Shown here in pieces: positions 19,235-57,050 of a stretch of DNA of 64,000 nt (position 1 is its first letter; each line of letters starts with the position of its first letter). Source of the DNA: an uncultured Candidatus Saccharibacteria bacterium. Its GTDB lineage: Bacteria; Patescibacteriota; Minisyncoccia; Phycocordibacterales; UBA9973. Both the position numbers and the translations under genes were made by a program. The stretch covers positions 91,388-155,387 of the forward strand of contig CAZYBS010000001.1 of assembly GCA_964645245.1 (NCBI GenBank). The letters run 5' to 3'. The notes beneath the pieces are model-generated. The model had not been told where the DNA came from. It did not search any database and saw nothing but the letters and a program-made list of their open reading frames with translations.

Positions 19235-20932
19235 TTATTTCCTCACTCCATGCTTAACGTGCAGCTTTTCTATCTCCTCTTCTTCTAGTTCTTCCTTTTT
19301 CTCTTTTCCGCGTTCGCCCAGAGCTCGGAGCTCGGCATCACCAAGCATATTTAGAGATTTAGCCAGTTCGGAGAGGTGTTCCACGGTATTTTTCTCCGGC
19401 GCATCCAACACTTCTTCTAAGAGCGCGTGCAGAATCCAGCCCATTCTGGGTCCCGGCGCAATTTTCAATTCTTTCATCATAAATTCCCCGTTAATTTTCA
19501 GCTGACCGACAGAAATCGGGTCACGCAGCGCTTCTTCTATCATCGCAAAATATTTCCGCAGGCGATAGGGCGCTTCTTTTTTCTTCATGCCAACCCTATC
19601 ACACTCACGCACGCTCATTAGGAGCCAAATATTTTCTACACCTACTTTGGTAATAATTCTGCGCACCGCGGAAAGCGTTATTAATTCCGTATCGGAAAAA
19701 AACATATGATTGCGCACAAGCTTGGATACTAATTCAATTTCCTTTCTGGGAAATTTTAATCTTTCCATTATTTTTTTCGCCATTCGCGCGCCGATAACTT
19801 CATGGCCGTAAAAAGTATATTTCTTTTTAGTAGCTCCGCCAGTAAACAATTTATCAGGTCCTCGGAAAAAATCCCCAGACCGTGCTAAATTGTTCACCGG
19901 CTTCGCTACTTGGGCGGAGTTTGGGTGCTTTTGTGAAGGACCGACGTTGCGAAGCAGGAGATCCTGAGCAGAAGCACCAGACGATGCCAGTCTTCGTGTT
20001 CTGGGCTTCCCAATATCGTGCATCAGCGCGGCCAGTCTGATTTCAAGCGGCCAATTTTTATCTGCGGCATGCTGTACTGCGTGAAGTAAATGGTCCCAGA
20101 CATCATAAATATGTTCACCCAACTGCTTGCAACCTATCCCCTCCTCCAGTTCCGGAATAATATTTTTCAACAGTCCAAATTTTTGTAGCATTACAATTCC
20201 CATGGCAGGATTTGGCGACATAATTATTTTTACCAATTCATCACGAATCCTTTCGGCGGATATTTCTTCTATTAAGCTTGAATTCTTTAAAATATTCTCC
20301 GAAGTTTCATATGACACAGAAAAATTAAGTTGGCAAGCGAAGCGTACAGCCCGTATCATTCTCAAAGCATCTTCTTCAAAACGATCATTCGGAACCCCTA
20401 CCGCTCTTAAAGTTTTATTTTCAATGTCCTTTAGACCTCCATATAAATCTACCAAGTGTCCGTTAGGATGTCCTTTATGAATGCTGAATGCCATGGCATT
20501 TACAGTGAAATCACGTCTTTTAAGGTCATCTTCTAACTTATCACTGAATTTAACCTCATCCGGATGCCTAAAATCACCATATTTTGCTTCAATCCTGTAA
20601 GGAGTGACCTCAACAACAAAATTGGGTTCTAGGTTAGAGGTTCTAGGTTCTAGTGTTTCTTGTGAAACATTATTCTGTGACATTTCACGTGGAACTATGA
20701 CCCCTACAGTACCAAAAGCATTCTCGTAGACCGTCTTTTCGAAAAGACTAATAATTTGTTCTGGTTTAGCATTTGTTGTAACATCCCAATCTTTGGGTTC
20801 TATCCCCATCAAAAGATCACGAACACAGCCGCCAACTAGATAGGCTTCAAAACCGGCTTTCTCGAGTATATCCGTTACATGTGAAACCTCTTTGGGTATT
20901 TTTGGTATTAAATTTTTAGTATTTGGTTCCAC
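19235..20932 (-). CDS. cca: CCA-adding enzyme / tRNA nucleotidyltransferase with HD domain, carrying repeat-encoded inserts
   Basis: Pol-beta-type head (LVGGCVRDLLMG…DWDV) and an HD domain (LAALMHDIGKP). In-frame CTAGAACC-type and GACGTTGCGAAGCAGGAGATCCTGAG repeat copies. Confidence 0.8.
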   Translation of the reverse strand: MEPNTKNLIPKIPKEVSHVTDILEKAGFEAYLVGGCVRDLLMGIEPKDWDVTTNAKPEQIISLFEKTVYENAFGTVGVIVPREMSQNNVSQETLEPRTSNLEPNFVVEVTPYRIEAKYGDFRHPDEVKFSDKLEDDLKRRDFTVNAMAFSIHKGHPNGHLVDLYGGLKDIENKTLRAVGVPNDRFEEDALRMIRAVRFACQLNFSVSYETSENILKNSSLIEEISAERIRDELVKIIMSPNPAMGIVMLQKFGLLKNIIPELEEGIGCKQLGEHIYDVWDHLLHAVQHAADKNWPLEIRLAALMHDIGKPRTRRLASSGASAQDLLLRNVGPSQKHPNSAQVAKPVNNLARSGDFFRGPDKLFTGGATKKKYTFYGHEVIGARMAKKIMERLKFPRKEIELVSKLVRNHMFFSDTELITLSAVRRIITKVGVENIWLLMSVRECDRVGMKKKEAPYRLRKYFAMIEEALRDPISVGQLKINGEFMMKELKIAPGPRMGWILHALLEEVLDAPEKNTVEHLSELAKSLNMLGDAELRALGERGKEKKEELEEEEIEKLHVKHGVRK

Positions 20933-20934
20933 TT

Positions 20935-21447
20935 TTATTTTGTGCGCCCGGCAGGAATCGAACCCACATCACTCGTTCCGAAGACGAGCACTCTATCCGT
21001 TGAGCTACGGGCGCTTTTATTTTTAAACCAATTAAATACTTGTGCTGTTTTTCTTCTATGACAATTAGCACATCGAACTTCACACTTGTCAATTTCCTTC
21101 TGAATTTTATCAATAGGAAAGTGTGCCCTAGCTAATTGAGAAACTGCCTTCAATTTTGGAACTATTCCCTTATGATCAAATTCCAAAACTGTAACATCTG
21201 ATTCACCACAGTCAACACAAGGGTTTTTTAATAAATGCTGACACAAAAACACATTTACCTTGTCACGTAAGGTTTTATTACGTTTTCTGGCTTTCAATAA
21301 ATAATATTGACGATTACTATTATAATGGTTTCTAATTAATAAGCGAGTACACTCTTTGCATTGTCGATGTCTTAACCCTGTAGCTTTTATTTTAAAGCTA
21401 AATTCACTGAGCGATTTTTCCTTTTTACACTTAGAACATTTTTTCAT
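20935..21447 (-). CDS. HNH endonuclease with an N-terminal zinc ribbon; the ORF reads through tRNA-Arg on the same strand
   Basis: CVDCGESDVTVLEFDHKGIVPKLKAVSQLARAHFPIDKIQKEIDKCEVRCANCHRRKT is a canonical HNH (ββα-Me) motif. The last ~25 codons are encoded by the tRNA gene. Confidence 0.55.
   Translation of the reverse strand: MKKCSKCKKEKSLSEFSFKIKATGLRHRQCKECTRLLIRNHYNSNRQYYLLKARKRNKTLRDKVNVFLCQHLLKNPCVDCGESDVTVLEFDHKGIVPKLKAVSQLARAHFPIDKIQKEIDKCEVRCANCHRRKTAQVFNWFKNKSARSSTDRVLVFGTSDVGSIPAGRTK
20942..21013 (-). tRNA. tRNA-Arg (anticodon UCG), no encoded CCA
   Basis: Manually folded: acceptor GCGCCCG/CGGGCGC, anticodon stem CTCGT/ACGAG, loop CTTCGGA, T-loop TTCGATT. Confidence 0.7.
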
Positions 21448-21547
21448 TACGGATACATTTTATCACATATAGTTTCGGAAAACAAGAAAATTCCGAAGAT
21501 GTTTATTGCATAAATAATGTGGAAATAATATAATAGGTCAGCTTATC

Positions 21548-21618
21548 GCGGTCATAGTTTAGTGGCAGAACACGATCTTGCCAAGATTGAGGCGCGGTTT
21601 CGATTACCGCTGGCCGCA
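21548..21618 (+). tRNA. tRNA-Gly (anticodon GCC), no encoded CCA
   Basis: Acceptor GCGGTCA/TGGCCGC (one G·U pair), anticodon stem CGATC/GATTG, loop TTGCCAA, T-arm GCGGT-TTCGATT-ACCGC. Confidence 0.75.
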
Positions 21619-21855
21619 CAAAAGTAATGTCCATTATCAAAAATGCTAATCCCTATAAATTAAGGATATTATAGCTAAAAATGTGGATAACTATGTTGGT
21701 AATGTTTATAAAGGACATTAAGATAACTTGTCTTTTACAACTTTTTTATATAAAATATGTTGATAAATAAGGATATATTAATAAAAGACATAAAATTAAG
21801 TATAAAGTTTCACATGAAACATATTTGATTATGTTATTCGTGAAACACACCAAAT

Positions 21856-22266
21856 ATGCCTAAAGTATTTACATCAGAGAAACAAAAAATAGGAGAAATT
21901 GGTGAAAATATAGCCGTAAAGTTTCTCGTGAAACAGGGCTTTTCAATATTAGATCGAAATTATACTAAAAAATGGGGTGAAATAGACATTATAGCTGAAA
22001 AAGATAATAAATTATATTTCATTGAAGTTAAGTCTGTATCAAGGTTGAACCTTGACGACGTTTCACAAGAAACGTTGGACCAATACAATCCGGAAGATAA
22101 TATGCACCCCTGGAAATTAAAAAGGCTCTCAAGGACAATTCAAACTTATCTCTTATCTAGGAATGTCCCTGAAGAAAAAGAATGGCAATTTGACCTTTTG
22201 ATTGTCTTTTTGAGTCTAAAGGACAAAAATGCCAAAATCAAAGTAGTCAAGGATATAATTTTGTGA
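21856..22266 (+). CDS. yraN: YraN-family (UPF0102) predicted endonuclease
   Basis: GEIGENIAVKFLVKQGFSILDRNYTKKWGEIDIIAEKDNKLYFIEVKSV matches the UPF0102 core. Confidence 0.65.
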   Translation: MPKVFTSEKQKIGEIGENIAVKFLVKQGFSILDRNYTKKWGEIDIIAEKDNKLYFIEVKSVSRLNLDDVSQETLDQYNPEDNMHPWKLKRLSRTIQTYLLSRNVPEEKEWQFDLLIVFLSLKDKNAKIKVVKDIIL

Positions 22267-22315
22267 CCCATTCGACAGGCTCAGGGTCATGGTGAATAAA
22301 ATTGAACCATGATAT
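22263..22315. repeat. Repeated hairpin element (gacccattc…GGGTCATGGTGA-loop-GAACCATGA), copy 1
   Basis: Nearly identical to 32137-32190. 8-bp stem TCATGGT/ACCATGA with a 12-nt loop. Confidence 0.55.
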
Positions 22316-22332
22316 ACTCCAAAATATTTTGA

Positions 22333-22403
22333 CGGGCCGTAGTATACCGGTAGTACAAGTGCTTTGGGAGCATTTAGACTGGGTTCAATTCCCAGCGGCC
22401 CGA
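22333..22403 (+). tRNA. tRNA-Pro (anticodon GGG) with a C1:G72 pair, no encoded CCA
   Basis: Acceptor CGGGCCG/CGGCCCG, U8, anticodon stem GTGCT/AGCAT, loop TTGGGAG, T-arm CTGGG-TTCAATT-CCCAG. Confidence 0.7.
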
Positions 22404-22417
22404 ACGTTATTTGATTT

Positions 22418-22488
22418 GCGGGATTAGTTTAGTGGTAAAACGTCAGTTTTCCAAACTGAGGTTGGGAGTTCGATTCTCCCATCCCGCA
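22418..22488 (+). tRNA. tRNA-Gly (anticodon UCC), no encoded CCA
   Basis: Acceptor GCGGGAT/ATCCCGC, anticodon stem TCAGT/ACTGA, loop TTTCCAA, T-arm GGGAG-TTCGATT-CTCCC. Confidence 0.8.
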
Positions 22489-22545
22489 CAAATTTTTATT
22501 TGACTAAAATCTTCAGAGTTGTAGTATTTAACTGGAGGCACACCA

Positions 22546-22665
22546 TGTCACAGCAATTGACCGATGAGGAACAGATGGCGCGATCGGGTCCCATTGTGGG
22601 ACTTGTGATCCTCGTCGGTATCGGGCTGCTTCTCTGGGGCGCTTGGGTCGCATGGACCCGCTGAT
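22546..22665 (+). CDS. GC-rich micro-ORF (39 aa) encoding a single-TM peptide, hypothetical
   Basis: GGAGG ribosome-binding site 7 nt upstream. MSQQLTDEEQMARSGPIVGLVILVGIGLLLWGAWVAWTR. Followed by hairpin gggcggg…ccccgccc and a T-run at 22672-22730. Too short to appear in the ORF track. Confidence 0.3.
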
Positions 22666-22750
22666 GTGGCGAAGAAAGAACGAGGGCGGGAAGTCGAAAA
22701 ATATCTCGACACACCCCGCCCTCAAGCTTTTTAAAATCAAAAAATAATTT

Positions 22751-23500
22751 ATGATCACAACATACATTTATGCTCTCATAAGCGTCATAATAGTTAGCTT
22801 AGTGTCATTGGTTGGAGTTTTTGCGCTTTCTTTAAAAGAAGAAATTTTAAGAAAATATATTTTCATTTTTATCAGTTTAGCTGTTGGCGCGCTTTTGGGA
22901 GACGCTTTCATTCATCTCATTCCCAAGGCTTTAGAAAATTCCCCGAACATTAGCCTAACTAGCACGCTTATTATCACTGGCATTCTGATTTTTTTTATTT
23001 TGGAAAAATTTCTGCACTGGCACCATCACGGAGAGGATAAGGAAGAAACACATATTCATCCAGTCGGGAAATTAGTGCTCTTTTCGGATGGCGTGCACAA
23101 CTTTATTGACGGCATGATCATCGGAGCAAGTTTTATTCTAAGCATCCCGATAGGCATCGCCACGACTATAGCCGTAATCCTGCATGAAATCCCTCAAGAA
23201 ATAGGGGACTTTGCGGTGCTCCTGCATTCCGGTTATTCAAAAACGCGCGCATTATGGCTAAACTTTCTTTCGGCGCTCCTCGCAGTTTTGGGACTTTTTG
23301 TTCTTTCTATCTTAAATCAAACAGAACGAGTTGTAACTCTATATTTTCTGCCAATCGCCGCTGGAGGATTTATTTATATTGCATTGGCTGACTTAATACC
23401 TGAACTGCATAAGACAAAGGAAATAAAATATTCCGTCTTGCAACTCCTGGCAGTCATAATTGGAGTCTTGGCAATGTTTGCTTTGACTTTACTTGAATAA
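22751..23500 (+). CDS. ZIP-family divalent metal transporter (ZupT-like)
   Basis: His-rich loop (HWHHHGEDKEETHIHP) and HEIPQEIGDFAVL, the ZIP signature. Confidence 0.8.
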   Translation: MITTYIYALISVIIVSLVSLVGVFALSLKEEILRKYIFIFISLAVGALLGDAFIHLIPKALENSPNISLTSTLIITGILIFFILEKFLHWHHHGEDKEETHIHPVGKLVLFSDGVHNFIDGMIIGASFILSIPIGIATTIAVILHEIPQEIGDFAVLLHSGYSKTRALWLNFLSALLAVLGLFVLSILNQTERVVTLYFLPIAAGGFIYIALADLIPELHKTKEIKYSVLQLLAVIIGVLAMFALTLLE

Positions 23501-23560
23501 TCAGGTTCTGGTTTCCAGTTTCGAGGTTCTAGTCACTGGCACCTAGTTACTAGCAACTGA

Positions 23561-24709: not shown

Positions 24710-24931
24710 GATATACCATCGCCTCTGATTTCAACCATTTTCTATCGCAACTGCTCTCAAAAGGTACTTCCATAGGGTAGCCTAAAACAGGCCAAAAGTC
24801 AATCGTGGTGGGGAAAACTATTTTGATGATATTTCGTCAAAAATTTGACAAAACAAGTGAGAAAGCGTATAATTGGAGTACTTTTGAATAAAAATTAGTA
24901 TAAAAAGTTAAAGAATATATAATACAAATAT

Positions 24932-26275: not shown

Positions 26276-26280
26276 ATTTT

Positions 26281-27516: not shown

Positions 27517-27563
27517 ATAACATACCCGCCGACGCTTAAAGCTAAGGCGAGCCAAGTAAAAAT

Positions 27564-28787: not shown

Positions 28788-31700
28788 GTGATTAAGAATG
28801 CGCAACATCTAAGAGGACTAAATAAACGGCAAAGAGAAGCGGCGAGTCATATGAAGGGTCCGCTGCTTATCGTTGCGGGAGCGGGAGCAGGAAAAACTAA
28901 AACAATAACGCATAGAATTGTAAATTTAATAAAGGAAGGAGTGCCTCCGGAGCGTATTTTGGCTGTCACTTTTACCAATAAAGCAGCCGAGGAGATGCGG
29001 GGGCGGATTAGCTCTGCAATAAAAGATAACTTCGTCGGTAATCCTTTTTCAGAGGTCCTCGGTTCTCCGGGTCCCTATCCCGGCCAGACCATCCGAAAAA
29101 GCATTACCGACTCCGTGCCTTTCGTCAGCACTTTTCACTCTTTGGGAGTTTTTATAATCAAAGAAAATGCAAAAATCTTGAAGCTGACTCGGTATTTTAG
29201 CATTTTGGACGAAGATGATTCAAAAACTCTCATCAAAGAAATTATCAAAGAGTTGGGCCACGATCCAAAAGAACATTCGCCCGGTAAAATAAGGGTGATA
29301 ATAAGCATTGAAAAAGGAAAATTTGTTACTCTGGAAAATTACAGGCAAAATATCCGGGGCTCTTTTCAGGAACTGGTAGCCAATGTATGGAAAATTTATG
29401 AAGAGAGAAAGGCAAAAGAGAATTCACTGGACTTTGATGACCTGCTTTTAAAGGCGACCAAACTATTAAAGGAAAATGAGCAGATTAGAAAAATTTATCA
29501 AGAAAGGTGGGAATATATCCATATTGACGAATATCAGGACACCAACGAAGTGCAATATTTAATGTCCAAACTTCTGTCTGAAAACAATAACAACATAGCT
29601 GTTGTAGGCGACACAGACCAATGTCTTATTAAAGGCACAAAAATAACAATGGCCGATAGCACTTTTAAACCCATTGAAAATATAAAAAGGGGCGACCTTG
29701 TGCTGTCAAATTATGGAAGCGGAGATTTTAGACCAGCTAAAGTTATTGGGAGAAAAAATCTAAAATTCAAGGGAAATTTAATCAAAATTAAAACAGAGAA
29801 AGGGAAAATTATTACCAGCACCCCCGATCATATTCACTTTGCCGGATATCGCCTTGGGCTAACTCCACAGATATATCTGAACTACTTAATGTATAAAAAA
29901 AATGCGGGTTGGCGCATAGGCACCACATCAATACATACAAAAGGGCAAAAGAAACCCGTAGTAGGATTTATACAAAGGTCCAACCAAGAACACGCCGATG
30001 CCACATGGGTCATCGCTACCCACAAAACACAAAGAGAGGCCCGCATAAAGGAATATCAGTTATCGCTGAGATATCAAATACCAACTTTGCCATTTGTACC
30101 TCGTAGGGGTTTTAGCATTAATGGTTACGTGCATGACAATACTGCCTTGAAAGAAATTTTTTCTTCTTTTAATACTGAAAATTCTGCTTTAAAACTACTC
30201 TCTGGGCTTGGTCTTTCACGAGACCATCCACATCATCAGCCTCAGGCTCGAAATGCGAACAGAAGAAATATAAATATTACTTTGTGCGCAGACAGGCGCG
30301 GCAAAAATCCAATGCATCTTATTTCAACATTTGGTAATGACGATATTGGTAGGAAAAAACTGGAGTCCTTTGGCTTTTCTGTCCGTCCAGCGAAAAAAAA
30401 CACAAAGAATTGGCGATTTGAGACAGTTCGAGCTGACTATGGAGAGGCTTACTTATTGGCTACAAAAATAGCTTCGGTCTTTTCCGAAACCAATCTTATA
30501 TTGAGTGCTCGACTTGGTGGTATGAAAACCAATTCTCGTGACGGCAACTCACTTCCACACCTGCCAGCCAGCTCTATTATGCCCGGCATGGCTCTTTTTG
30601 TTCAGGGCGGTTACGATATTGTTTCAAAAGTTTCACAGATCCCAACATCTAAAATAAAAGTGTTTGATCTTGATATAGAAAAAACCCATAATTTTATGGC
30701 AAATGATATAGTAACTCATAATTGTATTTACTCCTGGCGCGGAGCGAATTTAAAAAATATTTTGAGCTTTGAAAAAGATTATCCGAATGCGAAAATAATC
30801 CTCTTGGAGGAAAATTATAGGTCAACAAAAAATATTCTGGAAGCGGCCAACGTTATAATCAAAAAAAATAAATACCGGCCAGAAAAAAATTTATTCACAA
30901 AAAATAAAAGTGGCGAGAGAATTGGCCTCTATGAAGCGCTCAATGAAAATGACGAAGCGGACTTCGTGGCGACAAAAATTTTAGAAATAATGGACGGCTC
31001 CGTCTCTTCAAATTTTTTCTCGCTACGTACCGCCAAGCGTAATTCCTCACTCGAAAAAATTGAAGAAGACTTCGCTTTAGAAATTCAAAAAGGGGTTGGT
31101 AGTGATTTTTTGAATGGTGACGTTGCGAAGCAGGATATCCTGAGAAAAAATACTACCAACCCCTTTTTGTCAGAAATCGCAATCCTTTACCGGGCGAACT
31201 TTCAGTCGCGCGCGCTGGAGGAAGCAATGTTAAGATATAATATCCCATATCAAGTCTTGGGTGTTAAATTTTTTGAAAGAAAAGAAATTAAAGATACCCT
31301 GGCCTATCTGCGCGCCGCATTAAATAGAGACAGCCTCTCGGATATAAAAAGAATAATAAATTTCCCGGCGCGGGGCATCGGCAAGGCTACGCTGGCTAAA
31401 ATTTTTGCCACCGCCAGGGCGGGGCAAGCAAATGATATGGAAAATCTGCCGATAAAAATGAAAATTAAGATCAATAATTTCTACAAAATTCTGGAAGAAA
31501 TAAAAATAAAAATCGCGGAAGAAAAAGCGAGCGCGGTGATAAAATTCGTAGTCAAACATTCCGGCATCGAGAGAGAATTGGGGGAAGGCGGGGAAGAGGA
31601 GATGGAGAGACTGGCAAACATTAAAGAACTTGCGACCCTCGCCTTAAAATACGACAATCTGGCAAACGCAAAAGATAATATAAGCGGTATTGAAAGGCTT

Positions 31701-32138
31701 TTAGAGGATGCGGCGCTGGCATCAGACCAGGATTCGTTGATGATAAGTGAGGGCGTTGCCTCCGAGAAAAAGAAAAATAACGGGGTAAAATTGATGACCG
31801 TGCACGCCTCAAAAGGACTTGAGTTTAAATATGTTTTTGTCGTCGGACTGGAAGACGGACTATTCCCCGCCCGCAACGCCTCGCGTAGCGAGGCGGGCGG
31901 GCCCAATAAAAGAGACGAGGAGACAAAAAATAAAGAGGACTCCGAAGAAGAACGCAGGCTTTTTTATGTGGCAGTCACGCGCGCCAAAGAAAAATTATTT
32001 TTATCGTTCGCGAATTTCCGCACCATCTTCGGAGCCCTTCAAATAAACGCTCCATCGGAATTTATTTCCGATATTCCAGGAAACCTATTAGACCCCGTCG
32101 CTCACGAGCGACGGGGAGAAAAAATTATCTACATATGA
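28788..32138 (+). CDS. UvrD/PcrA-family superfamily-1 DNA helicase interrupted by an intein
   Basis: Walker A AGAGAGKTKTI, motif Ia TFTNKAAEEM, motif II IHIDEYQDTN, and …VGDTDQ[intein]CIYSWRGA (motif III). Later motifs follow. Confidence 0.85.
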   Translation: MIKNAQHLRGLNKRQREAASHMKGPLLIVAGAGAGKTKTITHRIVNLIKEGVPPERILAVTFTNKAAEEMRGRISSAIKDNFVGNPFSEVLGSPGPYPGQTIRKSITDSVPFVSTFHSLGVFIIKENAKILKLTRYFSILDEDDSKTLIKEIIKELGHDPKEHSPGKIRVIISIEKGKFVTLENYRQNIRGSFQELVANVWKIYEERKAKENSLDFDDLLLKATKLLKENEQIRKIYQERWEYIHIDEYQDTNEVQYLMSKLLSENNNNIAVVGDTDQCLIKGTKITMADSTFKPIENIKRGDLVLSNYGSGDFRPAKVIGRKNLKFKGNLIKIKTEKGKIITSTPDHIHFAGYRLGLTPQIYLNYLMYKKNAGWRIGTTSIHTKGQKKPVVGFIQRSNQEHADATWVIATHKTQREARIKEYQLSLRYQIPTLPFVPRRGFSINGYVHDNTALKEIFSSFNTENSALKLLSGLGLSRDHPHHQPQARNANRRNINITLCADRRGKNPMHLISTFGNDDIGRKKLESFGFSVRPAKKNTKNWRFETVRADYGEAYLLATKIASVFSETNLILSARLGGMKTNSRDGNSLPHLPASSIMPGMALFVQGGYDIVSKVSQIPTSKIKVFDLDIEKTHNFMANDIVTHNCIYSWRGANLKNILSFEKDYPNAKIILLEENYRSTKNILEAANVIIKKNKYRPEKNLFTKNKSGERIGLYEALNENDEADFVATKILEIMDGSVSSNFFSLRTAKRNSSLEKIEEDFALEIQKGVGSDFLNGDVAKQDILRKNTTNPFLSEIAILYRANFQSRALEEAMLRYNIPYQVLGVKFFERKEIKDTLAYLRAALNRDSLSDIKRIINFPARGIGKATLAKIFATARAGQANDMENLPIKMKIKINNFYKILEEIKIKIAEEKASAVIKFVVKHSGIERELGEGGEEEMERLANIKELATLALKYDNLANAKDNISGIERLLEDAALASDQDSLMISEGVASEKKKNNGVKLMTVHASKGLEFKYVFVVGLEDGLFPARNASRSEAGGPNKRDEETKNKEDSEEERRLFYVAVTRAKEKLFLSFANFRTIFGALQINAPSEFISDIPGNLLDPVAHERRGEKIIYI
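29622..30722 (+). mobile_element. Intein (~367 aa) inserted in helicase motif III of uvrD/pcrA
   Basis: Block A CLIKGTKITMADS, block B TPDHIHF, block F VFDLDIEKTHNFMAN, block G DIVTHN, followed by extein Cys+1 (CIYSWRGA). The central ~200 aa lacks a clear LAGLIDADG/HNH motif. Confidence 0.8.
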
Positions 32139-32190
32139 CCCATTCAAAAAATTCAGGGTCATGGTGATAGAATAGAACCATGACACACAA
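32137..32190. repeat. Repeated hairpin element (gacccattc…GGGTCATGGTGA-loop-GAACCATGAC), copy 2; its 3' arm contains the ksgA start codon
   Basis: Nearly identical to 22263-22315. Confidence 0.55.
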
Positions 32191-33091
32191 AGCAAAAAGA
32201 TCACTTGGACAAAATTTTTTGAAATCAGAAATAGCGCTCCGGAAGATTATTGAAGCGGGAGAGGTGAAAAAAGATGACGTAATTCTTGAAATTGGTCCGG
32301 GGAAGGGAGCACTGACAGAAAAATTACTAGAGCGTATTTACCCCCACCCGGCCTCCCCCTATGTAGGGGGAGGTGCCAAAGGCGGAGGGGGTATGGTCAT
32401 AGCCGTAGAAAAAGACCGCGAGCTTTTTGAGTTTTTGAAAGTTAAATTTGAAAAGGAAATAAATATACGTTCTCTTATACTAGTACATGATAACATACTA
32501 AATTTCAATACTAGAACCTATAACCTAGAACCTAGAACCTATAAAGTGATTGCCAACATCCCCTACAACATTACCGGCGCAATTTTAAAAAAATTCCTGA
32601 CAGAAGAAAATCAGCCTGAAAGCATGGTATTGATGGTTCAAAACGAGGTGGCCAAAAGAATTACCACCCCAAACCCCTCCTCAACAAGGAGGGGAGGGAA
32701 AGAAAGCATATTGTCTATTTCGGTGAAAGCGTACGGGGAGCCGAAAATGATAATGAAGGTGGAAAAGCGATATTTTTCGCCCCAGCCGAAAGTGGACTCG
32801 GCTGTAATTACCATAAAAAACATTTCCCGAAAAATATTTGAAACCCCACCCCAACCCTCCCCAAAGGAGAGGGAAGAATCCAAATCCTCCCCCTTGGGGG
32901 GAGGTCGGGAGGGGGTAAACGAGGATAAATTTTGGAAAATAGTAAAAGCAGGCTTTGCGCACAAGCGAAAAAAACTCTCCAGCAACCTAAAAGGCATTCT
33001 TGCCTGTCAAGGGGCGCCCTTGACACTGGTTAAAGACAAAAGGGCAGAGGATTTAGCGCTTGCAGACTGGATTGCGCTTGCGAAAATGTGA
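32180..33091 (+). CDS. rsmA: 16S rRNA (adenine1518/1519-N6)-dimethyltransferase RsmA/KsgA with four in-frame repeat insertions
   Basis: QNFL…, …LEIGPGKGALT… and …IANIPYNIT… are KsgA motifs. Inserts: IYPHPASPYVGGGAKGGGGM, TRTYNLEPRTY, PNPSSTRRGGKES and PQPSPKEREESKSSPLGGGREGVN. Confidence 0.85.
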   Translation: MTHKAKRSLGQNFLKSEIALRKIIEAGEVKKDDVILEIGPGKGALTEKLLERIYPHPASPYVGGGAKGGGGMVIAVEKDRELFEFLKVKFEKEINIRSLILVHDNILNFNTRTYNLEPRTYKVIANIPYNITGAILKKFLTEENQPESMVLMVQNEVAKRITTPNPSSTRRGGKESILSISVKAYGEPKMIMKVEKRYFSPQPKVDSAVITIKNISRKIFETPPQPSPKEREESKSSPLGGGREGVNEDKFWKIVKAGFAHKRKKLSSNLKGILACQGAPLTLVKDKRAEDLALADWIALAKM

Positions 33092-41324: not shown

Positions 41325-43205
41325 ATGTCTATTTTTGACACATTATTTAGAAAAAAGAAAATGGGGGGTGAAGTTCACCCCGCCGATGGCGGGGCAAGTG
41401 CCTCAATTTTAGCGGTATTGCCAGAACAAATCTACGAATCAGCCAGTCTGGAACTGCAAGATGTCATCGCGCCCTCGGCGCTTAAAATTGAATCAAAATC
41501 CATAAACCTGGGCGATAAAATCGCGCGCACTTTTTTCATAATATCTTATCCGAGATTTTTGACCGACAATTGGTTTTCCCCAATAATCAACTTGGATAAA
41601 GTTTTTGATATTTCAATTTTTATCCACCCGATAGATACATCCTTAATGCTGCGGCAATTTCAGAAAAAAGTCGCTGAAGTGCAAAGCCAAATAAGCGTAC
41701 GCGAGAGCAAGGGGATGGTGCGCGACCCGATGCTCGATACCGCTTACCAAGACCTGGAAGGACTCCGCGACAATTTAATCCAGGCGCAGGAAAAAATGTT
41801 TGATGTCGGTATTTATATCACAATTTATGCCAACAATGACTTGGAACTTTTCAAACTTGAAAATGAAATAAAGTCAATGCTGGAGTCAAAATTAATATAC
41901 ATTAAACCGGCGCTTTTTCAGCAAGAAGACGGTTTTAAGAGCGTTATACCGATAAATACCGATTTACTAAATATCCACCAAAAATTAAATTCTGAACCGC
42001 TTTCCAGCGTTTTCCCTTTCATTTCTTTTGACTTAACTTCTGATAAAGGCGTACTCTACGGCGTCAACCGGCATAATTCCAGTTTGGTAATTTTTGACAG
42101 ATTTTCTCTGGAGAATTATAACTCGGTAACTTTTGCTAAAGCCGGCGCAGGTAAATCATATGCCACGAAACTGGAAGTTTTAAGGTCTTTGATGTTTGAT
42201 ATTGATGTCATTATAATAGACCCGGAACGGGAATATGAATTTTTGGCGGAAGCTGTGGGCGGACGATATTTCAGCATTTCCCTTTCCTCGGACCACCACA
42301 TGAACCCTTTTGATTTGCCAATGCCACGCGAAGACGAAACAGCCGAAGATGTCTTGCGTTCAAATATTATTAACCTCGTTGGACTTTTCCGATTAATGCT
42401 GGGAGGGCTTACGCCGGAAGAAGATTCAATGGTGGACCGCGCCATTTCCGAGACTTATGCCATCAAAGACATTACTCCAGAATCAGATTTTTCAAACATT
42501 GAACCTCCACTTCTTTCCGACTTTGAAATGGTGCTTTCGGGAATGGAAGGAAGCGATTCGGTCGTGCAGAGATTGGCGAAATACACCAAAGGTTCTTGGG
42601 CGACATTTTTAAACAGGCCTTCCAATGTGGACATTAATAAAAAGTTTGTGGTATTTTCCATCCGCGATATGGAAGACGAATTAAAGCCAGTCGCAATGTA
42701 TATCATTATGCATTATATCTGGAATGCAATACGCAAAAATTTGAAAAAGCGCTTATTGGTTGTGGATGAAGCTTGGTGGATGATGAAATCCGAAGATACT
42801 GCATCTTTTCTCTATTCTATCGCCAAGCGAGGCAGAAAATATTATCTGGGCCTTTCCACTATCACTCAAGATGCGGCTGACTTTTTGAATTCCCCCTACG
42901 GCGTACCGATAATCACCAACTCTTCCATCCAGCTTCTCCTAAAACAATCCCCCACCACTATTGATATCCTGCAAAAAACTTTTAATCTTACCGACGAAGA
43001 AAAATATCTTCTTTTAGAATCCAGTGTGGGTGAGGGCATCTTCTTCGCAGGATTAAAGCATGTCGCCATAAAAGTCATTGCTTCTTATACCGAAGACCAG
43101 ATTATCACCTCCGATCCTTCACAAATACTATCAAACAGAAAAGCCAAAGAAGAGCAGGAGGCAGAGCAAATACGGACACCAGATAGAGCTTTAGGCGCTA
43201 TCTAG
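41325..43205 (+). CDS. VirB4/TrbE/CagE-family type IV secretion ATPase (body)
   Basis: CagE_TrbE_VirB-like region (…LGDKIARTFFIISYPRFLTDNWFSPII…). Walker A FAKAGAGKSYATK, Walker B LLVVDEAWWMM. Confidence 0.8.
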   Translation: MSIFDTLFRKKKMGGEVHPADGGASASILAVLPEQIYESASLELQDVIAPSALKIESKSINLGDKIARTFFIISYPRFLTDNWFSPIINLDKVFDISIFIHPIDTSLMLRQFQKKVAEVQSQISVRESKGMVRDPMLDTAYQDLEGLRDNLIQAQEKMFDVGIYITIYANNDLELFKLENEIKSMLESKLIYIKPALFQQEDGFKSVIPINTDLLNIHQKLNSEPLSSVFPFISFDLTSDKGVLYGVNRHNSSLVIFDRFSLENYNSVTFAKAGAGKSYATKLEVLRSLMFDIDVIIIDPEREYEFLAEAVGGRYFSISLSSDHHMNPFDLPMPREDETAEDVLRSNIINLVGLFRLMLGGLTPEEDSMVDRAISETYAIKDITPESDFSNIEPPLLSDFEMVLSGMEGSDSVVQRLAKYTKGSWATFLNRPSNVDINKKFVVFSIRDMEDELKPVAMYIIMHYIWNAIRKNLKKRLLVVDEAWWMMKSEDTASFLYSIAKRGRKYYLGLSTITQDAADFLNSPYGVPIITNSSIQLLLKQSPTTIDILQKTFNLTDEEKYLLLESSVGEGIFFAGLKHVAIKVIASYTEDQIITSDPSQILSNRKAKEEQEAEQIRTPDRALGAI

Positions 43206-43224
43206 CGCCTAAAGCTCTATCTGG
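43169..43224. promoter_or_regulatory. Long palindrome CCAGATAGAGCTTTAGGCGCTATCTAGCGCCTAAAGCTCTATCTGG at the virB4 stop
   Basis: Shares CCAGATAG…GCGCTATCTGG arms with the palindrome at 17369-17394. Candidate terminator or operator. Confidence 0.5.
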
Positions 43225-48170: not shown

Positions 48171-48462
48171 TTTCAATTATTAAAATATCAGCTTGGTACT
48201 TTTTAAAAACAAAAACACCTAAAAGTCTGGTAGGGAATTTATTAATATATTTTTTTAAGACAGCATACCCATGTCGTCTTAATAAATTTCGATTTACTGC
48301 CTTTTTTGAAACAGTTTTGGGTACAATAAAGGAAATACGCGGAATACTGGAGTTATTATTTAATATGAACTTAAAAGTTAAATTTGGAGAAGTAAGAAAT
48401 TTCCCATCCTTAAAAATAAAATCTATGTCTTTTTTACTGGCCCTGTTTTTTTTAGCTAGCAT
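48136..48462 (-). CDS. rnpA: RNase P protein component
   Basis: …KKAVNRNLLRRHGYAVLK… is the RNR-like basic motif. Located immediately downstream of rpmH. Confidence 0.8.
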   Translation of the reverse strand: MLAKKNRASKKDIDFIFKDGKFLTSPNLTFKFILNNNSSIPRISFIVPKTVSKKAVNRNLLRRHGYAVLKKYINKFPTRLLGVFVFKKYQADILIIENEIKNILDKIN

Positions 48463-48486
48463 AACTTGTCCCGCTATAGGCGTGGA

Positions 48487-48621
48487 TTAAACAGACAGCT
48501 TCTTCCTACCTTTTCTTCTTCTTCTCAAAAGCACTTTTTGACCAGCTTTGACCCTGGACCTAATTAAAAACCCGTGGGTTCTGGCTCTTTTTCTCTTTTT
48601 AGGCTGGTATGTTTGTGACAT
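48487..48621 (-). CDS. rpmH: 50S ribosomal protein L34
   Basis: Manual translation: [44 protein letters not shown] (45 aa). Not in the ORF track because it is shorter than 60 aa. Confidence 0.8.
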
Positions 48622-48724
48622 ATCCCCATTCTATAGTATTATCCACAGTTTATCAACATAGTTAATAAGTTTTTATGGATTTTTATAGGTTTTATTTATT
48701 AGGTAAATAGTATAGTATGGAACG
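48622..48724. promoter_or_regulatory. Putative oriC / dnaA promoter region with DnaA boxes
   Basis: Perfect DnaA box TTATCCACA at 48631-48639 and TTATCAACA at 48642-48650. AT-rich spacer between rpmH and dnaA. An additional TTATCCACT sits at 50147-50155 in the dnaA-dnaN spacer. Confidence 0.5.
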
Positions 48725-50074: not shown

Positions 50075-50212
50075 TTATTGGCAAGTTGTTAGACAATAAT
50101 TAAAAACAGTGAAACATATTAAACAACACCAAATAAGATTAAACGTATTTATCCACTTATCAACACCATTAATAGTATTAGTAAGTTAAATAAATAAAGA
50201 TATAAACATAAT

Positions 50213-53827: not shown

Positions 53828-53865
53828 TATTCTAATTATAACAGGGATTATGTTATAATCCGAGT

Positions 53866-55050
53866 ATGAAAGTGATTATAGATGAGGACAAAATTATTGG
53901 ATTACTCAACCGAGGGGTTGATAAGATTTACCCTTCTTGTGAAAAGTTAGAACAGGTTTTGCGTTCTGGGAAAAAACTCCGGCTCTACCAAGGCTTTGAT
54001 CCGACCGGGGATAAACTTCATATTGGCCATATGGTTGGCTTGCGAAAACATAGGCAATGGCAAGACCTGGGCCATGAAGTCATTTTTCTTGTGGGTGATG
54101 GTACTGGCCAAGCGGGGGATCCAACTGGCAGAAAAAAATCGAGAGAAAAATTTTTTACCCGGGAAGAATTGCGCGCTAATGCTAAAAATTATCTTACCCA
54201 AGCAAAAAAAATAGTCCGCTTTGACGGGCCAAATCCTGTTAAGATAATGTACAATGCAGATTGGCTAAATAAATTAACCCTTATTGATATTTTAAATATC
54301 GCAGGACACTTCTCTGTTCAACAGCTGATTGAACGGGATATGTTTCAGGAACGTCTCAAGGCGGGTGATTCCATAAATCTCCGCGAATTTTTATATCCTC
54401 TCCTTCAAGGTTATGATTCTGTTGCCATGGACGTAGATTTAGAATTGGGAGGCTCTGACCAGACTTTTAACATGCTGGCCGGACGGATGCTTATGCGCGC
54501 CATGAAGGGCAAAGAAAAATTTGTGATGACGACACCCCTGCTTTCTGACTCCAAAGGTGTCAAGATCGGTAAAAGCGAAGGTAATGTGATTGGGCTAACC
54601 GATGAACCAAATGATCTATTCGGTAAGATTATGTCTTTGGGAGATGATGCTATTATCCCCATGTTTACGCTCTTAACAGACGTGCCATTAGATGAAATAA
54701 ATTCTTTTAATATAAAAAAGAACCCTATGGAGTTAAAGAAAAGGGTAGCTCATATTCTAGTCACAACACTTCATTCCAAGAAAGAGGCAGAAAAAGCGGA
54801 AGAATTTTTTTCTAAGACTTTTCAGAAGGGTGAAATACCGGAAGAGGTTGAGGAAATAAAAGGAGGAGAAAAACCACTTGATATATTTGTTGTAAATGGT
54901 ATTGCTTCATCAACTTCTGCAGCTAGACGTCTTTTTGACGCTGGGGCTGTTACTGATATGACAGACGGTAGAAAACTAACATCAAAAGATGAACTCAAAA
55001 CTGGTCACGTTTACAAAATCGGCAAACATCGCTTCATAAAAATAAAATAA
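53866..55050 (+). CDS. tyrS: Tyrosyl-tRNA synthetase
   Basis: Class I HIGH motif (KLHIGHMVGL) and a KMSKS-like motif (KIGKSEGN). GFDPTGD… N-terminus typical of TyrRS. Confidence 0.75.
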   Translation: MKVIIDEDKIIGLLNRGVDKIYPSCEKLEQVLRSGKKLRLYQGFDPTGDKLHIGHMVGLRKHRQWQDLGHEVIFLVGDGTGQAGDPTGRKKSREKFFTREELRANAKNYLTQAKKIVRFDGPNPVKIMYNADWLNKLTLIDILNIAGHFSVQQLIERDMFQERLKAGDSINLREFLYPLLQGYDSVAMDVDLELGGSDQTFNMLAGRMLMRAMKGKEKFVMTTPLLSDSKGVKIGKSEGNVIGLTDEPNDLFGKIMSLGDDAIIPMFTLLTDVPLDEINSFNIKKNPMELKKRVAHILVTTLHSKKEAEKAEEFFSKTFQKGEIPEEVEEIKGGEKPLDIFVVNGIASSTSAARRLFDAGAVTDMTDGRKLTSKDELKTGHVYKIGKHRFIKIK

Positions 55051-55053
55051 AAT

Positions 55054-55086
55054 ACACAGGGGTCTCCTGTGTGTTTTATTTTTTAT
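55054..55086 (+). terminator. Rho-independent terminator downstream of tyrS
   Basis: ACACAGGggtctCCTGTGT followed by TTTTATTTTTT. Confidence 0.7.
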
Positions 55087-55218
55087 CTATCTTTATCTGG
55101 GTCTTCTTCATCTAAACCAAAATCAGTCATTTCTTCCGGCATCTCTAATGGTTCATCGTCATCAGCGCCACTTATTCTAAAACCATCCTCCATGTCCACG
55201 TCCTCATCATAACTCATA
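55081..55218 (-). CDS. Micro-ORF (46 aa) encoding a highly acidic peptide, hypothetical
   Basis: Manual translation MSYDEDVDMEDGFRISGADDDEPLEMPEEMTDFGLDEEDPDKDR. Downstream of ruvC on the same strand. No strong ribosome-binding site. Confidence 0.2.
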
Positions 55219-55306
55219 TAATTTAAAAATTAGTTTAATAACTTTTATTTTGTACCAAAATATGAGAAACTTGGCAATAGCAAGAAGCCTTAAGGTGTGG
55301 ATAAGT

Positions 55307-55786
55307 CTATTGCCTTTTATGCGCAAAGGCGGTCAAAGCTATAGCGATAGCATCCAGTTCGTCATCGGAGGTCTTGGATTTATCAGTTTTTACCAGTATT
55401 TTAAGCATTTTCATCACTTGTGTTTTATCCGCCCTACCATAACCGGTCGTGGCTATTTTTATTTGAAGGGGAGTCGCTTCAAAAATTTTGAGTCCTGCTT
55501 GCACAGCTTCGTAAACCACGACTCCCCGCGCTTCGGCTACGCGCATGACAGTTTTTTGGTTGGTATTTAAAAATAAAGTCTCAATCGCCAATACTTCCGG
55601 CTTGTATTTTTTTATTATTCTTTTCACCTCTGCGCCGATTAAAGCTAATCTTTCCGAAAATTCTAATTTTACCGAAGTCTTAAAGCATTCGGAAAAAACC
55701 ACAATTTCTTTCTTGCTGTTTTTGTCTTTTTCTAAAATTGCAATCCCCAACCTCTCAAACCCCGGGTCTATTCCTAAAATGCGCAT
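55307..55786 (-). CDS. ruvC: Holliday junction resolvase RuvC
   Basis: MRILGIDPGFERLGIAILE… and the acidic catalytic residues of the RNase H-like fold. 159 aa. Confidence 0.85.
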   Translation of the reverse strand: MRILGIDPGFERLGIAILEKDKNSKKEIVVFSECFKTSVKLEFSERLALIGAEVKRIIKKYKPEVLAIETLFLNTNQKTVMRVAEARGVVVYEAVQAGLKIFEATPLQIKIATTGYGRADKTQVMKMLKILVKTDKSKTSDDELDAIAIALTAFAHKRQ

Positions 55787-55949
55787 AATATGCAGTTTAA
55801 CATTTTTTATTGACTGAGGAGTTGAAGGAGGTGAACGGCTTATGGGCGCGAGGCACTTCTTGAGGAGTACCCTTCAGGGGGAGGCGGATGAGTTCATCTC
55901 CTCCTTATGGAGGAGGAGTGCCGAAGGCGAGGTGGTGATTAAATAGTTA

Positions 55950-55988
55950 CCACCCCCAACCCCCTCCTCAATAAGGAGGGGAGGACTA
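55950..55988. repeat. GC-rich palindromic repeat element, family C, abutting the ruvB stop codon
   Basis: CCACCCCCAACCCCCTCCTCAATAAGGAGGGGAGGAC. Same family as 32667-32700 in ksgA and, in reverse orientation, 45588-45636. Confidence 0.65.
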
Positions 55989-57050
55989 CATCAACTTATT
56001 CTGCCTTCCCGTAACATCAAAATCCAAGTGTTCATATGCTTTCTTAGTAGCCACACGGCCCCGGGCGGTGCGCTCAAGCAGTCCGAGTTGAATTAAATAT
56101 GGTTCTATCACTTCTTCCACCGTGGCTTCTTCTTCAGACATTGCTGCGCCGATGGTTTTGAGTCCGACCGGCCCGCCGTTGAATTTCTCAATCAATATTT
56201 CCAAAAATTTTCTGTCAGAAGAATTCAAACCAATATCATCAACCGCCAGCATGTTGAGAGCATCTTTGACTACTTTATAATCCAAATTTTTTTTACTTGC
56301 CCCGCCCTGGCGTGGGTTGACTTGGGCAAAGTCGCGACAGCGTTTCAAAAAATAATTTGCTGTGCGGGGAGTGGACCGGCTTCTCTTGGCAATTTCTTCT
56401 AAAGCATCTCTGTCAAATGTAATTTTTAAAAGTTTACTTGACCTTTTTATAATTTCGGCAATTTCTTCATTTGAATAAAATTCCAATCTGAAAACTCCGC
56501 CGGAAAATCGCGACCGCAGAGGGGAGGAAATAAGGGCTACTCGAGTGGTCGCCGCTATCAGGGTAAAAGGCGGGAGGTCTAATTGAATAGTGCGGGCGGA
56601 TGGTCCTTTGCCGATGATGATGTCTAAAACCCCGGACTCCATAGCCGGATAAAGTATTTCTTCAACCATTTTATTAAGCCGGTGGATTTCATCTATGAAA
56701 AGAATATCACCGGAAGAAAGATTGGTTAGGATAGAAGCCAAATCACCCACTTTTTCAATCGCCGGTCCGGAAGTTATTTTCATTTGCCGGCCGGTTTCTT
56801 TGGCTATTAAGTGTGCCAGGGTGGTTTTGCCTAATCCCGGAGGTCCGTAAAAGAGAATATGTTCAGGAATATGTCCGCGTTCCTCTGCAGCTCCCAAAAG
56901 GATTTTAACGTTGTCTTTTATGTGTTTTTGGCCAACATATTCATCCCAGCGGGTAGGGCGCAGGGTTTTGTCCAGCAAGGAGTCTTCAGTTTTGCTTGCC
57001 CCGCCGTGGCGTGGGTCTTTGTTTTTAGGGGTTGACATTGCAGTTGACAT
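55986..57050 (-). CDS. ruvB: Holliday junction branch-migration ATPase RuvB, with two in-frame copies of a short GC-rich repeat
   Basis: Walker A GPPGLGKTTLA, sensor motifs, and a C-terminal winged helix. The peptides PRHGGASK and PRQGGASK are encoded by TTGCCCCGCCNTGGCGTGGGT at 56996-57018 and 56298-56320. Confidence 0.9.
   Translation of the reverse strand: MSTAMSTPKNKDPRHGGASKTEDSLLDKTLRPTRWDEYVGQKHIKDNVKILLGAAEERGHIPEHILFYGPPGLGKTTLAHLIAKETGRQMKITSGPAIEKVGDLASILTNLSSGDILFIDEIHRLNKMVEEILYPAMESGVLDIIIGKGPSARTIQLDLPPFTLIAATTRVALISSPLRSRFSGGVFRLEFYSNEEIAEIIKRSSKLLKITFDRDALEEIAKRSRSTPRTANYFLKRCRDFAQVNPRQGGASKKNLDYKVVKDALNMLAVDDIGLNSSDRKFLEILIEKFNGGPVGLKTIGAAMSEEEATVEEVIEPYLIQLGLLERTARGRVATKKAYEHLDFDVTGRQNKLM

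Follow-up and report, generated by a model that had tools for sequence, protein, structure and literature searches.

The stretch of DNA considered here, a 64-kb window (91% coding and ~9% non-coding) from an ultra-small groundwater bacterium of the Nomurabacteria-like Patescibacteria, raises the question of why the same short DNA repeats are found, in frame, within unrelated housekeeping genes. A first-pass annotation had pointed out three such repeat types, and all three were found at the positions it gave, with similarities far beyond chance according to shuffled sequences and self-BLAST. The four host genes were identified with Pfam and NCBIfam, in agreement with its assignments, as cca (19235-20932, minus strand), pcrA/uvrD (28788-32138, plus strand), ksgA/rsmA (32180-33091) and ruvB (55986-57050, minus strand). 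Hereafter, we call the families (a), arrays of the heptamer CTAGAAC, (b), an element of ~50-55 nucleotides (nt) with inverted ends, and (c), a 21-nt GC hairpin. We estimate at roughly 60% the probability that the three are short DNA elements of the class of the repetitive extragenic palindromes (REPs) and the Rickettsia palindromic elements (RPEs), spread through the genomes of Nomurabacteria-type Patescibacteria.

The evidence comes largely from relatives, for which L numbers denote related DNA loci and P numbers homologous Cca proteins. Cca and RuvB of the window match proteins of 'Parcubacteria group bacterium Gr01-1014_24' with 100% identity, and the next-closest genomes, of Candidatus Nomurabacteria/Paceibacterota, show protein identities of 75-79% (Cca) and 84-90% (RuvB). 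The relatives keep the gene order cca ... uvrD-ksgA, which allowed a DNA-level comparison of orthologous sites.

The unit of family (c), CCCACGCCANGGCGGGGCAAG, is built of a GC stem of 7 bp in which one A is bulged, a loop of 3-4 nt and an unpaired CAAG tail. Two copies are located in ruvB on the minus strand, one in the loop of the AAA-lid (56296-56316, CCCACGCCAGGGCGGGGCAAG, encoding PRQGGAS) and the other in the N-terminal tail (56995-57015, CCCACGCCACGGCGGGGCAAG, encoding PRHGGAS). The 1-nt difference between these two 21-mers, compared as 56297-56317 and 56996-57016, was as annotated, and shuffles gave 0 matches. However, the repeat is not restricted to this duplication, since a third copy is found in uvrD (31407-31429, plus strand; same DNA sense in another frame, encoding ATARAGQ) and a variant form, the fourth, in the gene of a TraG-like P-loop ATPase, close to its N-terminus (41378-41398, plus strand, encoding HPADGGAS); in this copy the 7-bp stem is perfect (CCCCGCC GAT GGCGGGG CAAG). 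All four copies in the window are singletons within open reading frames (ORFs), and their orientation tracks the gene and not the DNA strand.

When the uvrD copy was compared with 12 relatives, it proved to be an exact 21-nt insertion, ACCGCCAGGGCGGGGCAAGCA, between TTTGCC and AATGAT; at the same site L017 has a different GC-rich palindrome. The internal site of ruvB is empty in L087 (QVN/RRDLD) and L085 and filled in L086, and the window has gained exactly 21 nt relative to the empty site of L087. The N-terminal ruvB copy is identical in DNA in L085 and L087 except for the loop base; these two loci were retrieved by protein id only, for this comparison. Among 120 RuvB homologues, intact, decayed and absent copies are patchily distributed at both sites. 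The density of (c) is also patchy: the 64-kb window has 4 copies and L085 has 3 within 8 kb, but in ~215 kb of other relatives the count is 0. Such patchiness, together with the intact, decayed and absent RuvB sites, is typical of selfish repeats.

One metagenome scan with the query CGCCANGGCGGGGCAAGYAAA gave 44 loci, corresponding to 36 distinct contexts and ~20 host genes. Bearers of (c) include contigs with the names Hain-H41 and Hain-H43, from Hainich groundwater metagenomes. The consensus across contexts was aaaGA-CCCACGCCANGGCGGGGCAAGY-aaa, in which the stem was invariant and the variation was concentrated in the loop base and at the position of the bulged A. Hosts confirmed by NCBIfam were a DEAD-box RNA helicase, FolD, PyrF, TopA, LysS, EF-Ts, IF-2, RsmH (at the C-terminus) and the leader of FtsZ, and RpoC, SMC and M1 aminopeptidase were recognized by inspection only. 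The contexts divided into 23 gene-internal positions, 3 at the C-terminal residues, 3 in 5′ leaders and 7 with a short ORF or none. Because the window is 91% coding, the ~28% (10/36) of contexts in non-coding DNA, including the 5′ leaders, indicates that such positions are over-represented, not under-represented, relative to the ~9% of non-coding DNA. The proposal that the elements target coding DNA is therefore not sustained, and the arrays of family (a), as described below, apparently have an intergenic native form. The coding copies of (c) were all sense-oriented (20 in one frame and 6 in another), although all six frames are open, and antisense copies were seen in non-coding DNA only.

Three other identities were considered for (c) and rejected. 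An intrinsic terminator does not fit, because the hairpin is followed by an A-run on the mRNA strand and the T-run of the other strand precedes the hairpin. A DNA-uptake sequence is contradicted by the clean 21-nt insertions, which are not derived by substitution, and by the absence from close relatives; stray CRISPR repeats are contradicted by the occurrence as singletons inside ORFs, with no arrays.

Family (b) corresponds to the 26-nt segment annotated as shared between cca (19943-19968) and uvrD (31119-31144). The two 26-mers indeed differ by only 1 mismatch (self-BLAST E-value 1e-4; 0 matches in 100 shuffles), but they represent only the core of an element of ~50-55 nt with inverted ends of ~10 nt and a central CAGGAT-ATCCTG palindrome. 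Both genes have the 26-mer on one and the same DNA strand; as cca is encoded on the minus and uvrD on the plus strand, the peptides differ, being AQDLLLRNV (cca) and DVAKQDIL (uvrD). In cca, the element (19924-19978, minus strand, encoding GASAQDLLLRNVGPSQKH) is located in a loop of the HD domain and its hairpin arms are 19924-19940 and 19962-19978. Homologues occupy the same loop in P0031, P0061, P0069 (identical to L133) and L132, the module being homologous to 'SPDASAQDFLLRNVNHSQKH' in P0031, P0061 and P0069, and Cca of P0030, P0034, P0035 and P0058 is without this loop. The reverse reading, 'FSNGDVAKQDIPEKK', is found in Cca of P0005 and matches the uvrD reading of the window. In total, this loop (HDIGKP to YTFYGHE) has from ~8 to ~70 extra residues among homologues of ~75% identity. 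Adjoining (b) in the loop is a second palindromic element (19829-19920, minus strand, encoding AKPVNNLARSGDFFRGPDKLFTGGA) with 37-nt arms that are 73% complementary; its homologues are in P0018, P0041 and P0053, and its reverse reading, 'NNLSGPRFSGS..', is in P0010, P0020 and P0060. The fold of the whole cca insert has a z-score of -3.1.

The uvrD copy of (b) (31104-31153, plus strand, encoding DFLNGDVAKQDILRKN) contains the 26-mer in the orientation to the host gene opposite to that in cca, and it is identical at 44/50 positions to the second element in cca of L132. Bearers of (b) are thus cca of L132, L133, P0031 and P0061 and, beside cca of the window itself, uvrD of the window. When six copies from three genomes and two genes, in both orientations, were aligned (alignment A1, 75% mean identity), the terminal arms of ~10 nt paired in 81.5% of the cells, compared with 37-55% when the arms were slid, and 3 pairs showed compensatory changes. 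RNAalifold reported only a 4-bp central hairpin on the same alignment, and the terminal arms were seen by this explicit test. The CGTC that is invariant in A1 is internal, neither a terminal tag nor adjoining a stem, and for this reason we rejected the classification of (b) as a CGTC REP.

In uvrD the element is enclosed by a composite palindrome of 84 nt (31086-31169, plus strand). The inverted repeat annotated here with 15-bp arms is present, but each arm is 25 nt long (31086-31110 and 31145-31169) and the arms are 92% complementary; the DNA fold was -23.5 kcal/mol, with z = -7.3. The same loop has a further hairpin module (31002-31070, plus strand, encoding SSNFFSLRTAKRNSS), whose 18-nt arms are 78% complementary, and a peptide similar to its product, 'SSNFSSLRTAEQLSS', is found in Cca of P0025. 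The uvrD loop measures 213 nt in the window, against 57 nt for that of L081; each relative has its own nested palindrome, the outer arms of which often span conserved host codons. In the loop (DEADFVA to LYRANFQSR) of L005, L006, L011 and L013, for example, the outer arms cover D(G/N) host codons. Larger inserts are composites of 84 to ~160 nt.

Tandem repeats had been annotated in cca and ksgA with a unit of 8 or 10 nt. The tandems of family (a) are present in both genes, but the unit is the heptamer CTAGAAC: Tandem Repeats Finder detected period 7 at 20625-20653 (4.1 copies) and at 32511-32541 (4.4 copies, 91% matches). The array in cca (20625-20654, minus strand) reads CTAGAAC CTAGAAC CTCTAAC CTAGAAC C on the coding strand and encodes LEPRTSNLEP, and that in ksgA (32510-32546, plus strand) reads A CTAGAAC CTATAAC CTAGAAC CTAGAAC CTATAAA and encodes TRTYNLEPRTYK. 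The two are 95% identical over 22 nt and 90% over 30 nt, and a 14-nt probe of two units, CTAGAACCTAGAAC, gave 8 matches with at most 2 mismatches, against 0.31 expected from shuffles. The intergenic copy that had been placed at 23500-23530 is also present, but it is a degenerate (CTAGNNN)n array of eight heptamers extending to 23556 (minus strand), between a ZIP transporter gene and a LysM/M23 peptidase gene whose 3′ ends converge; its identity to the ksgA array was 76% by manual alignment.

Similar arrays were found at gene 3′ ends in L017, L083, L093, L105, L109 and L130. Perfect (CTAGNNN) arrays of at least 3 units numbered 6 in 1.79 Mb of fetched loci, against ~0.1 in shuffles, and all six, as well as the intergenic array of the window, are within ~50 nt of stop codons or gene junctions. 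Arrays between genes, at gene 3′ ends, therefore appear to be the usual, or native, form of (a). The tetramer CTAG itself is under-represented in the window (91 against 231 expected). We also considered the single CTAGAAC as a dispersed binding motif and rejected it, as there are 9 on both strands, 7 of them within three arrays, and ~4.5 are expected per strand. No match of family (a) to any known family was found.

The coding copies of (a) are modules of 21 nt, or three heptamers. In cca the array is a gain of 21 nt (7 amino acids) compared with L005 and P0008, where the site reads 'ETLEY'; no fewer than 13 relatives share the module LEPRTSNLEPN, which others lack through a 21-nt indel. A 22-nt module, CTAGAACC-N6-CTAGAACC, is found in three unrelated genes, cca, ksgA and a ComF-like gene. 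A pure (CTAGAAC)3 has TAG in every frame, and in the coding copies the in-frame TAG is replaced by TAT (ksgA), TCT (cca), TTA (cca of L081) or TTT (the ComF-like gene of L094). As the replacement codon differs in each host, this result argues that the copies were adapted separately. In ksgA, period-7 arrays of the same length are found at the same site in L007, L010, L081 and L083, with the genome-specific units CTAAAGC, CTAGCGC and CTAGAAC, which indicates concerted change in place; L017 and L011 have period-15 versions at this site and L008 and L019 have no array.

Two other observations were made near these arrays. Another loop of ksgA, before the VLAVEKD motif, carries a second period-7 array in the GTTCTAG orientation, reading LLGSSDQ or LLASRCQ, in L083 (2684-2720) and L017 (reverse-complement coordinate 9812), and the window has a 51-nt GC-rich palindrome at this site. 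Just 5′ of the heptamer array of cca (20655-20700 in the window), in a loop of the head domain, GTGAAACA/TGTTTCAC modules that read V[SI][RHQ]ET are iterated one to three times, depending on the genome, in most Cca homologues.

Taken as DNA, the three families have in common that the peptide is not what is preserved. Family (b) is read in opposite orientations, (c) is read in two frames, as PR[HQ]GGAS in ruvB and, one base shifted, as ATARAGQ in uvrD, and the in-frame TAG of (a) is replaced differently. This rules out a shared protein motif and makes all three families DNA-level elements. What was observed directly is the DNA identity of the copies, their spread across genes and genomes, their presence or absence at orthologous sites and their positions in loops. 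The annotation of the repeats as dispersed insertion elements, lying in frame, is thus borne out by the finding of the same families in other genes and genomes.

The same comparison speaks against the further claim that the population is active. The cca array, the ksgA array, the cca copy of (b) and both ruvB copies of (c) are old, being orthologous in relatives of 75-89% protein identity, and only the uvrD copies of (b), compared with 9 relatives, and (c), compared with 12, are lineage-unique. Assembly chimeras, which had been raised as a possible source of the shared segments, are ruled out by the orthologous copies in independent assemblies from other samples.

The position of the inserts in the proteins was deduced from structures and models. 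In an AlphaFold2 model of Cca (mean pLDDT 70), residues 83-102, which hold (a), and 310-366, which hold (b), are predicted as coil with pLDDT <50 between confident core elements; the model has other low-confidence segments too, so that this predicted loop position is supportive and not decisive. Structure alignments with RuvB (6blb) and KsgA (6ifs) placed the inserts in indel-prone loops, as is the case for the internal (c) of ruvB. The coding copies thus look like survivors that selection has tolerated in disordered loops.

We next compared the families with known systems, of which REPs and RPEs are the closest. According to the survey of Di Nocera et al. 2013 (PMC3733652), REPs are imperfect palindromes of 20-40 bp with a stem of ~7-9 bp, a loop of 3-5 nt and an unpaired GTAG or CGTC tag at the end, have in-frame intragenic copies, many of them in repair genes including UvrD, and in some cases supply stop codons. 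Family (c) resembles them as there described in being a short, imperfect, GC-rich stem-loop, CCCACGCC-AN-GGCGGGG, with an unpaired 4-nt end, and in its in-frame intragenic copies at N-termini, at C-termini (sometimes as the last residues) and next to stop codons. Hosts with roles in DNA repair or RNA handling are a further likeness to that account, here ruvB (two copies), uvrD, topA, the DEAD-box helicase, IF-2, EF-Ts, lysS and rsmH, as are the patchy abundance between related genomes and the presence in the clade of palindrome-flanked genes for Y1 transposases resembling the REP-associated tyrosine transposases (RAYTs). Set against the same description, (c) has CAAG as its unpaired end (CTTG on the opposite strand) and not GTAG or CGTC, the copies are singletons and not head-to-head dimers, and they are mostly intragenic in the sample (23/36 contexts gene-internal), whereas REPs have many copies per genome that are mostly intergenic and often form inverted dimers. 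The complete sense-strand bias of the coding copies is another difference, and no RAYT gene flanked by (c), in the manner of a REPtron, was seen. Patescibacteria are not named among the REP hosts in the part of the survey available.

RPEs (Ogata et al. 2000) were compared by description, as given in PMC10969869 and PMC3733652. In these accounts they are palindromic and in frame in unrelated housekeeping genes, and their translation yields additional loops that the protein fold can accommodate, as it does for (b) in the variable loops of the Cca HD domain and of UvrD. They resemble the present families, so far as described there, also in occurring in coding and non-coding DNA without transposon-type terminal repeats or target duplications, and in consisting of old, vertically inherited copies with patchy loss. 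In contrast, the RPE-1 type is ~100-150 bp long by these accounts, and the units here are 21 nt and ~50-55 nt, the larger inserts being composites; moreover, the host belongs to a different phylum and is not known as an obligate intracellular bacterium. The two classes are themselves connected, since PMC3733652 equates Rickettsia RPE-4 and RPE-6 with CGTC REPs, and the in-frame RPE insertions are summarized in a review of transposable elements of the miniature inverted-repeat kind (MITEs; PMC10969869).

Other systems fit less of the data. Compared with MITEs, including the Coxiella QMITEs (PMC5896051; PMC10969869), (b) has terminal inverted arms, is found in either orientation, adds peptide segments and has a body of non-coding size. 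However, MITEs are 70-300 bp long with terminal inverted repeats of 15-30 bp and target-site duplications, whereas (b) is ~50-55 nt with arms of ~10 nt, has no known parent insertion sequence and gave no sign of a target-site duplication, which its hypervariable loops would obscure, and (c) has no clear one. Family (a) is like a slippage microsatellite in being head-to-tail, in changing copy number by steps of three units (21 nt) and in having units homogenized within each ksgA array. Unlike such a microsatellite, it recurs as the CTAGAACC-spaced module in three genes and as related arrays at gene ends in 6 other loci, and therefore local slippage alone is insufficient. In the literature searched there was no description of such elements in Patescibacteria or the wider candidate phyla radiation (CPR), a silence that is not proof of absence. 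Families (c) and (b) are best filed as a new family of the REP/RPE kind in a new phylum, lacking the REP tag and a REPtron.

If the elements are of this kind, an enzyme would be expected to move them, and the clade has a candidate. A tblastn search using approximate sequences of the E. coli RAYT and the IS200 TnpA gave, with the former, one weak match to a Y1 transposase ORF of 221 amino acids in L113 (4148-4810). This ORF matched PF01797 (Y1_Tnp, 1.2e-9), and its best NCBIfam hit was REP-associated tyrosine transposase (NF047646, 8.4e-12), below the curated cutoff. Homologues were found in L100, L118/L131 and L097, loci that had been retrieved solely via the (c) pattern. There are thus RAYT-like Y1 genes on 4-5 (c)-bearing contigs (L131 2017-2750, L118 1442-2175, L113 4126-4810, L100 225-1079), L118 and L131 being apparently the same locus. 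The L118/L131 gene has identical perfect palindromes of 27-29 nt on both sides, AAGTGGTCAACCTG/CAGGTTGACCACTT, in an arrangement like that of a REPtron or TIRtron, and the survey describes RAYT genes flanked by REPs or by unrelated inverted repeats (PMC3733652). Members of the RAYT-like family abound in Nomurabacteria, and one of them bears the NCBI name REP-associated tyrosine transposase. From these observations we infer that a RAYT-like enzyme may be the mover of the repeats. The elements would be copied by a trans-acting enzyme specific for single-stranded hairpins, possibly this one, and selection would filter the insertions by frame, orientation and position. After spreading, they would persist mainly where harmless, that is, in frame and free of stops where housekeeping proteins have disordered surface loops or terminal tails, and (b) would stack beside other palindromes or nest in them to give composite inserts.

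Several results weigh against this explanation. The palindromes that flank the RAYT-like genes differ from (c), (b) and (a), limited searches of the 64-kb window turned up no transposase, whatever its kind, and the surplus of RAYT-like genes on (c) contigs (4 in ~0.33 Mb against 0 in ~0.3 Mb of comparable loci) is not significant. Family (c) lacks the GTAG or CGTC tag of the known REP superfamilies, no unambiguous direct repeat was found when its filled and empty sites in uvrD and ruvB were examined for the target-site duplications suggested by the first-pass annotation, and its sense-only orientation in coding DNA means that a neutral mobile-DNA model needs an added selection step. The synonymous sites of the ruvB copies of (c) and of the cca array are more conserved than those of their host genes. 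Family (a) is non-palindromic and possibly has another origin than (b) and (c). The sense bias, the conserved synonymous sites in (c) and the cca array, and the nature of the CTAG-heptamer arrays are not accounted for by this explanation.

Some of these points would be accounted for if there were no dedicated mobile element, and short-patch ectopic repair (template switching at microhomology, or gene conversion) copied 20-50 nt from place to place, palindromes growing by fold-back synthesis and heptamer arrays by replication slippage. We regard this account as possible but rather unlikely. The empty cca site of L005 already holds CTAGAA (ACACTAGAATAT), a microhomology from which 21 nt could be copied out of an array, and the concerted evolution of the ksgA arrays, whose unit is CTAGAAC, CTAAAGC or CTAGCGC, is expected from it. 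The host codons in the outer arms of the uvrD loops of L005, L006, L011 and L013 are also in its favor: because these arms include conserved codons, the right arm resembles the left host flank copied in inverse orientation, a hint of palindrome extension by fold-back. The lack of target-site duplications and of a transposase in the window agrees with it as well. What it does not predict is that the 21-nt (c) recurs at ~20 or more unrelated sites in many genomes with sharp ends, unlike chance switches, that the density is patchy by lineage, and that the terminal arms of (b) are kept through compensatory changes across subfamilies.

The sense bias and the conservation could mean instead that the repeats are functional cis-elements under selection at the DNA or RNA level, (c) acting, for example, as an mRNA hairpin for stability, processing or ribosome pausing and (CTAGNNN)n as translational stops in six frames or as protein-binding arrays at gene ends. 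Without exception the coding copies of (c) are sense, and in the window their orientation follows the gene. The stem does not vary whereas the base in the loop does, and the orthologous copies in RuvB, retrieved solely by protein, agree at every four-fold degenerate site. The DNA of the cca array is 30/33 and 32/33 (91-97%) identical in L081 and L083, where the whole gene is 77% and 73% identical, and the (CTAGNNN)n arrays, with TAG in all six frames, are within ~50 nt of stop codons. However, (c) is absent from ~215 kb of close relatives, including the orthologous uvrD and ruvB sites, decayed copies are common, and hosts and positions share no theme beyond tolerance of insertion. Moreover, Rfam gave only 5 tRNAs above gathering thresholds in the window and no match to any element at E-values ≤1, and (c) is no intrinsic terminator. 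On balance, we consider function in this sense improbable.

A bolder version is that (c) and the CTAG-heptamer arrays form a coding-compatible signal system of Patescibacteria, more than tolerated selfish DNA, and it seems to us similarly doubtful. Here, (c) could be a sense-specific hairpin of mRNA or single-stranded DNA in essential genes, identical across species and maintained by a transcription-coupled mechanism of the Y1 transposase or by selection at the RNA level, and at gene ends (CTAGNNN)n could serve as modules for binding or for stopping translation in six frames. The sense bias, the synonymous conservation and the position at stop codons are compatible with such a system and are unexplained by simple neutral spread. 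Finally, convergent selection for flexible linker peptides, or an artefact of assembly or binning, is very improbable, since, although the peptides are Gly-, Ser- and Pro-rich or polar like loop linkers and the source is a metagenome-assembled genome, the frames or orientations differ so that the same DNA gives different peptides, orthologous copies are present in independent JGI, ENA, NCBI and Logan assemblies, and the reading frames are intact across all junctions.

Under the explanation we prefer, spread of REP/RPE-class elements followed by selective survival, this is a known phenomenon, the in-gene REP or RPE, in a new case with a few odd features, and it extends that phenomenon to a phylum for which the literature searched had no prior description. 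In Patescibacteria, whose genomes are tiny and densely packed with genes, many core proteins contain additional segments of unexplained nature. Some of these segments, at the least, are copies of a small number of short repeats that recur in ruvB, uvrD, topA, IF-2, EF-Ts, cca and ksgA, and the repeats explain the length variation and the low-confidence loops in these proteins. Caution is therefore needed not to take such segments for lineage-specific functional domains, and the repeats can be used as markers of strains or lineages. If it is true that RAYT-like enzymes move the 21-nt units, these would be among the smallest mobile units able to pass through a coding gene.

Other repeats and features were noted during the analysis. 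An in-frame dispersed element encoding ERTLGRSDGDGQRKFSAENFRGESEN, absent from the window, is found in KsgA, UvrD and Cca of different relatives: in KsgA of L015 (12235-12312) and L013 (5884-5955), in UvrD of L007 (11135-11212) and L081 (4854-4907), and in Cca of P0008, P0012, P0037, P0046 and P0057. A 49-nt direct repeat, 84% identical between 22264-22312 and 32136-32183, contains the hairpin TGACCC...GGGTCA and overlaps the stop codons of a UPF0102 gene and of uvrD, the latter copy running into the ksgA start; it resembles a gene-junction module. The palindrome family CCAGATAGCGCCTAAGGCGCTATCTGG is located at gene boundaries (17368-17394 and 43179-43224, the latter a near-perfect palindrome of 46 nt). 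The uvrD/pcrA gene (28788-32138) holds an intein of 367 amino acids at 29622-30722 (CLIKGT...VTHN/C), which matches Pfam Intein_splicing and TIGR01443 and is absent from close CPR relatives, whose matches are only 2.0-2.1 kb long. The segments 3127-3572 and 16275-15830 are inverted relative to each other with 77-80% nucleotide identity and indicate a paralogous gene pair, the ORFs 2806-3597 (plus strand) and 15796-16584 (minus strand). A tRNA gene (20943-21014, minus strand) overlaps the listed ORF of 170 amino acids at 20935-21447 (minus strand), which is probably no gene; this tRNA gene is in the region between cca and the ZIP transporter gene (20943-22488), where four tRNA genes are grouped.

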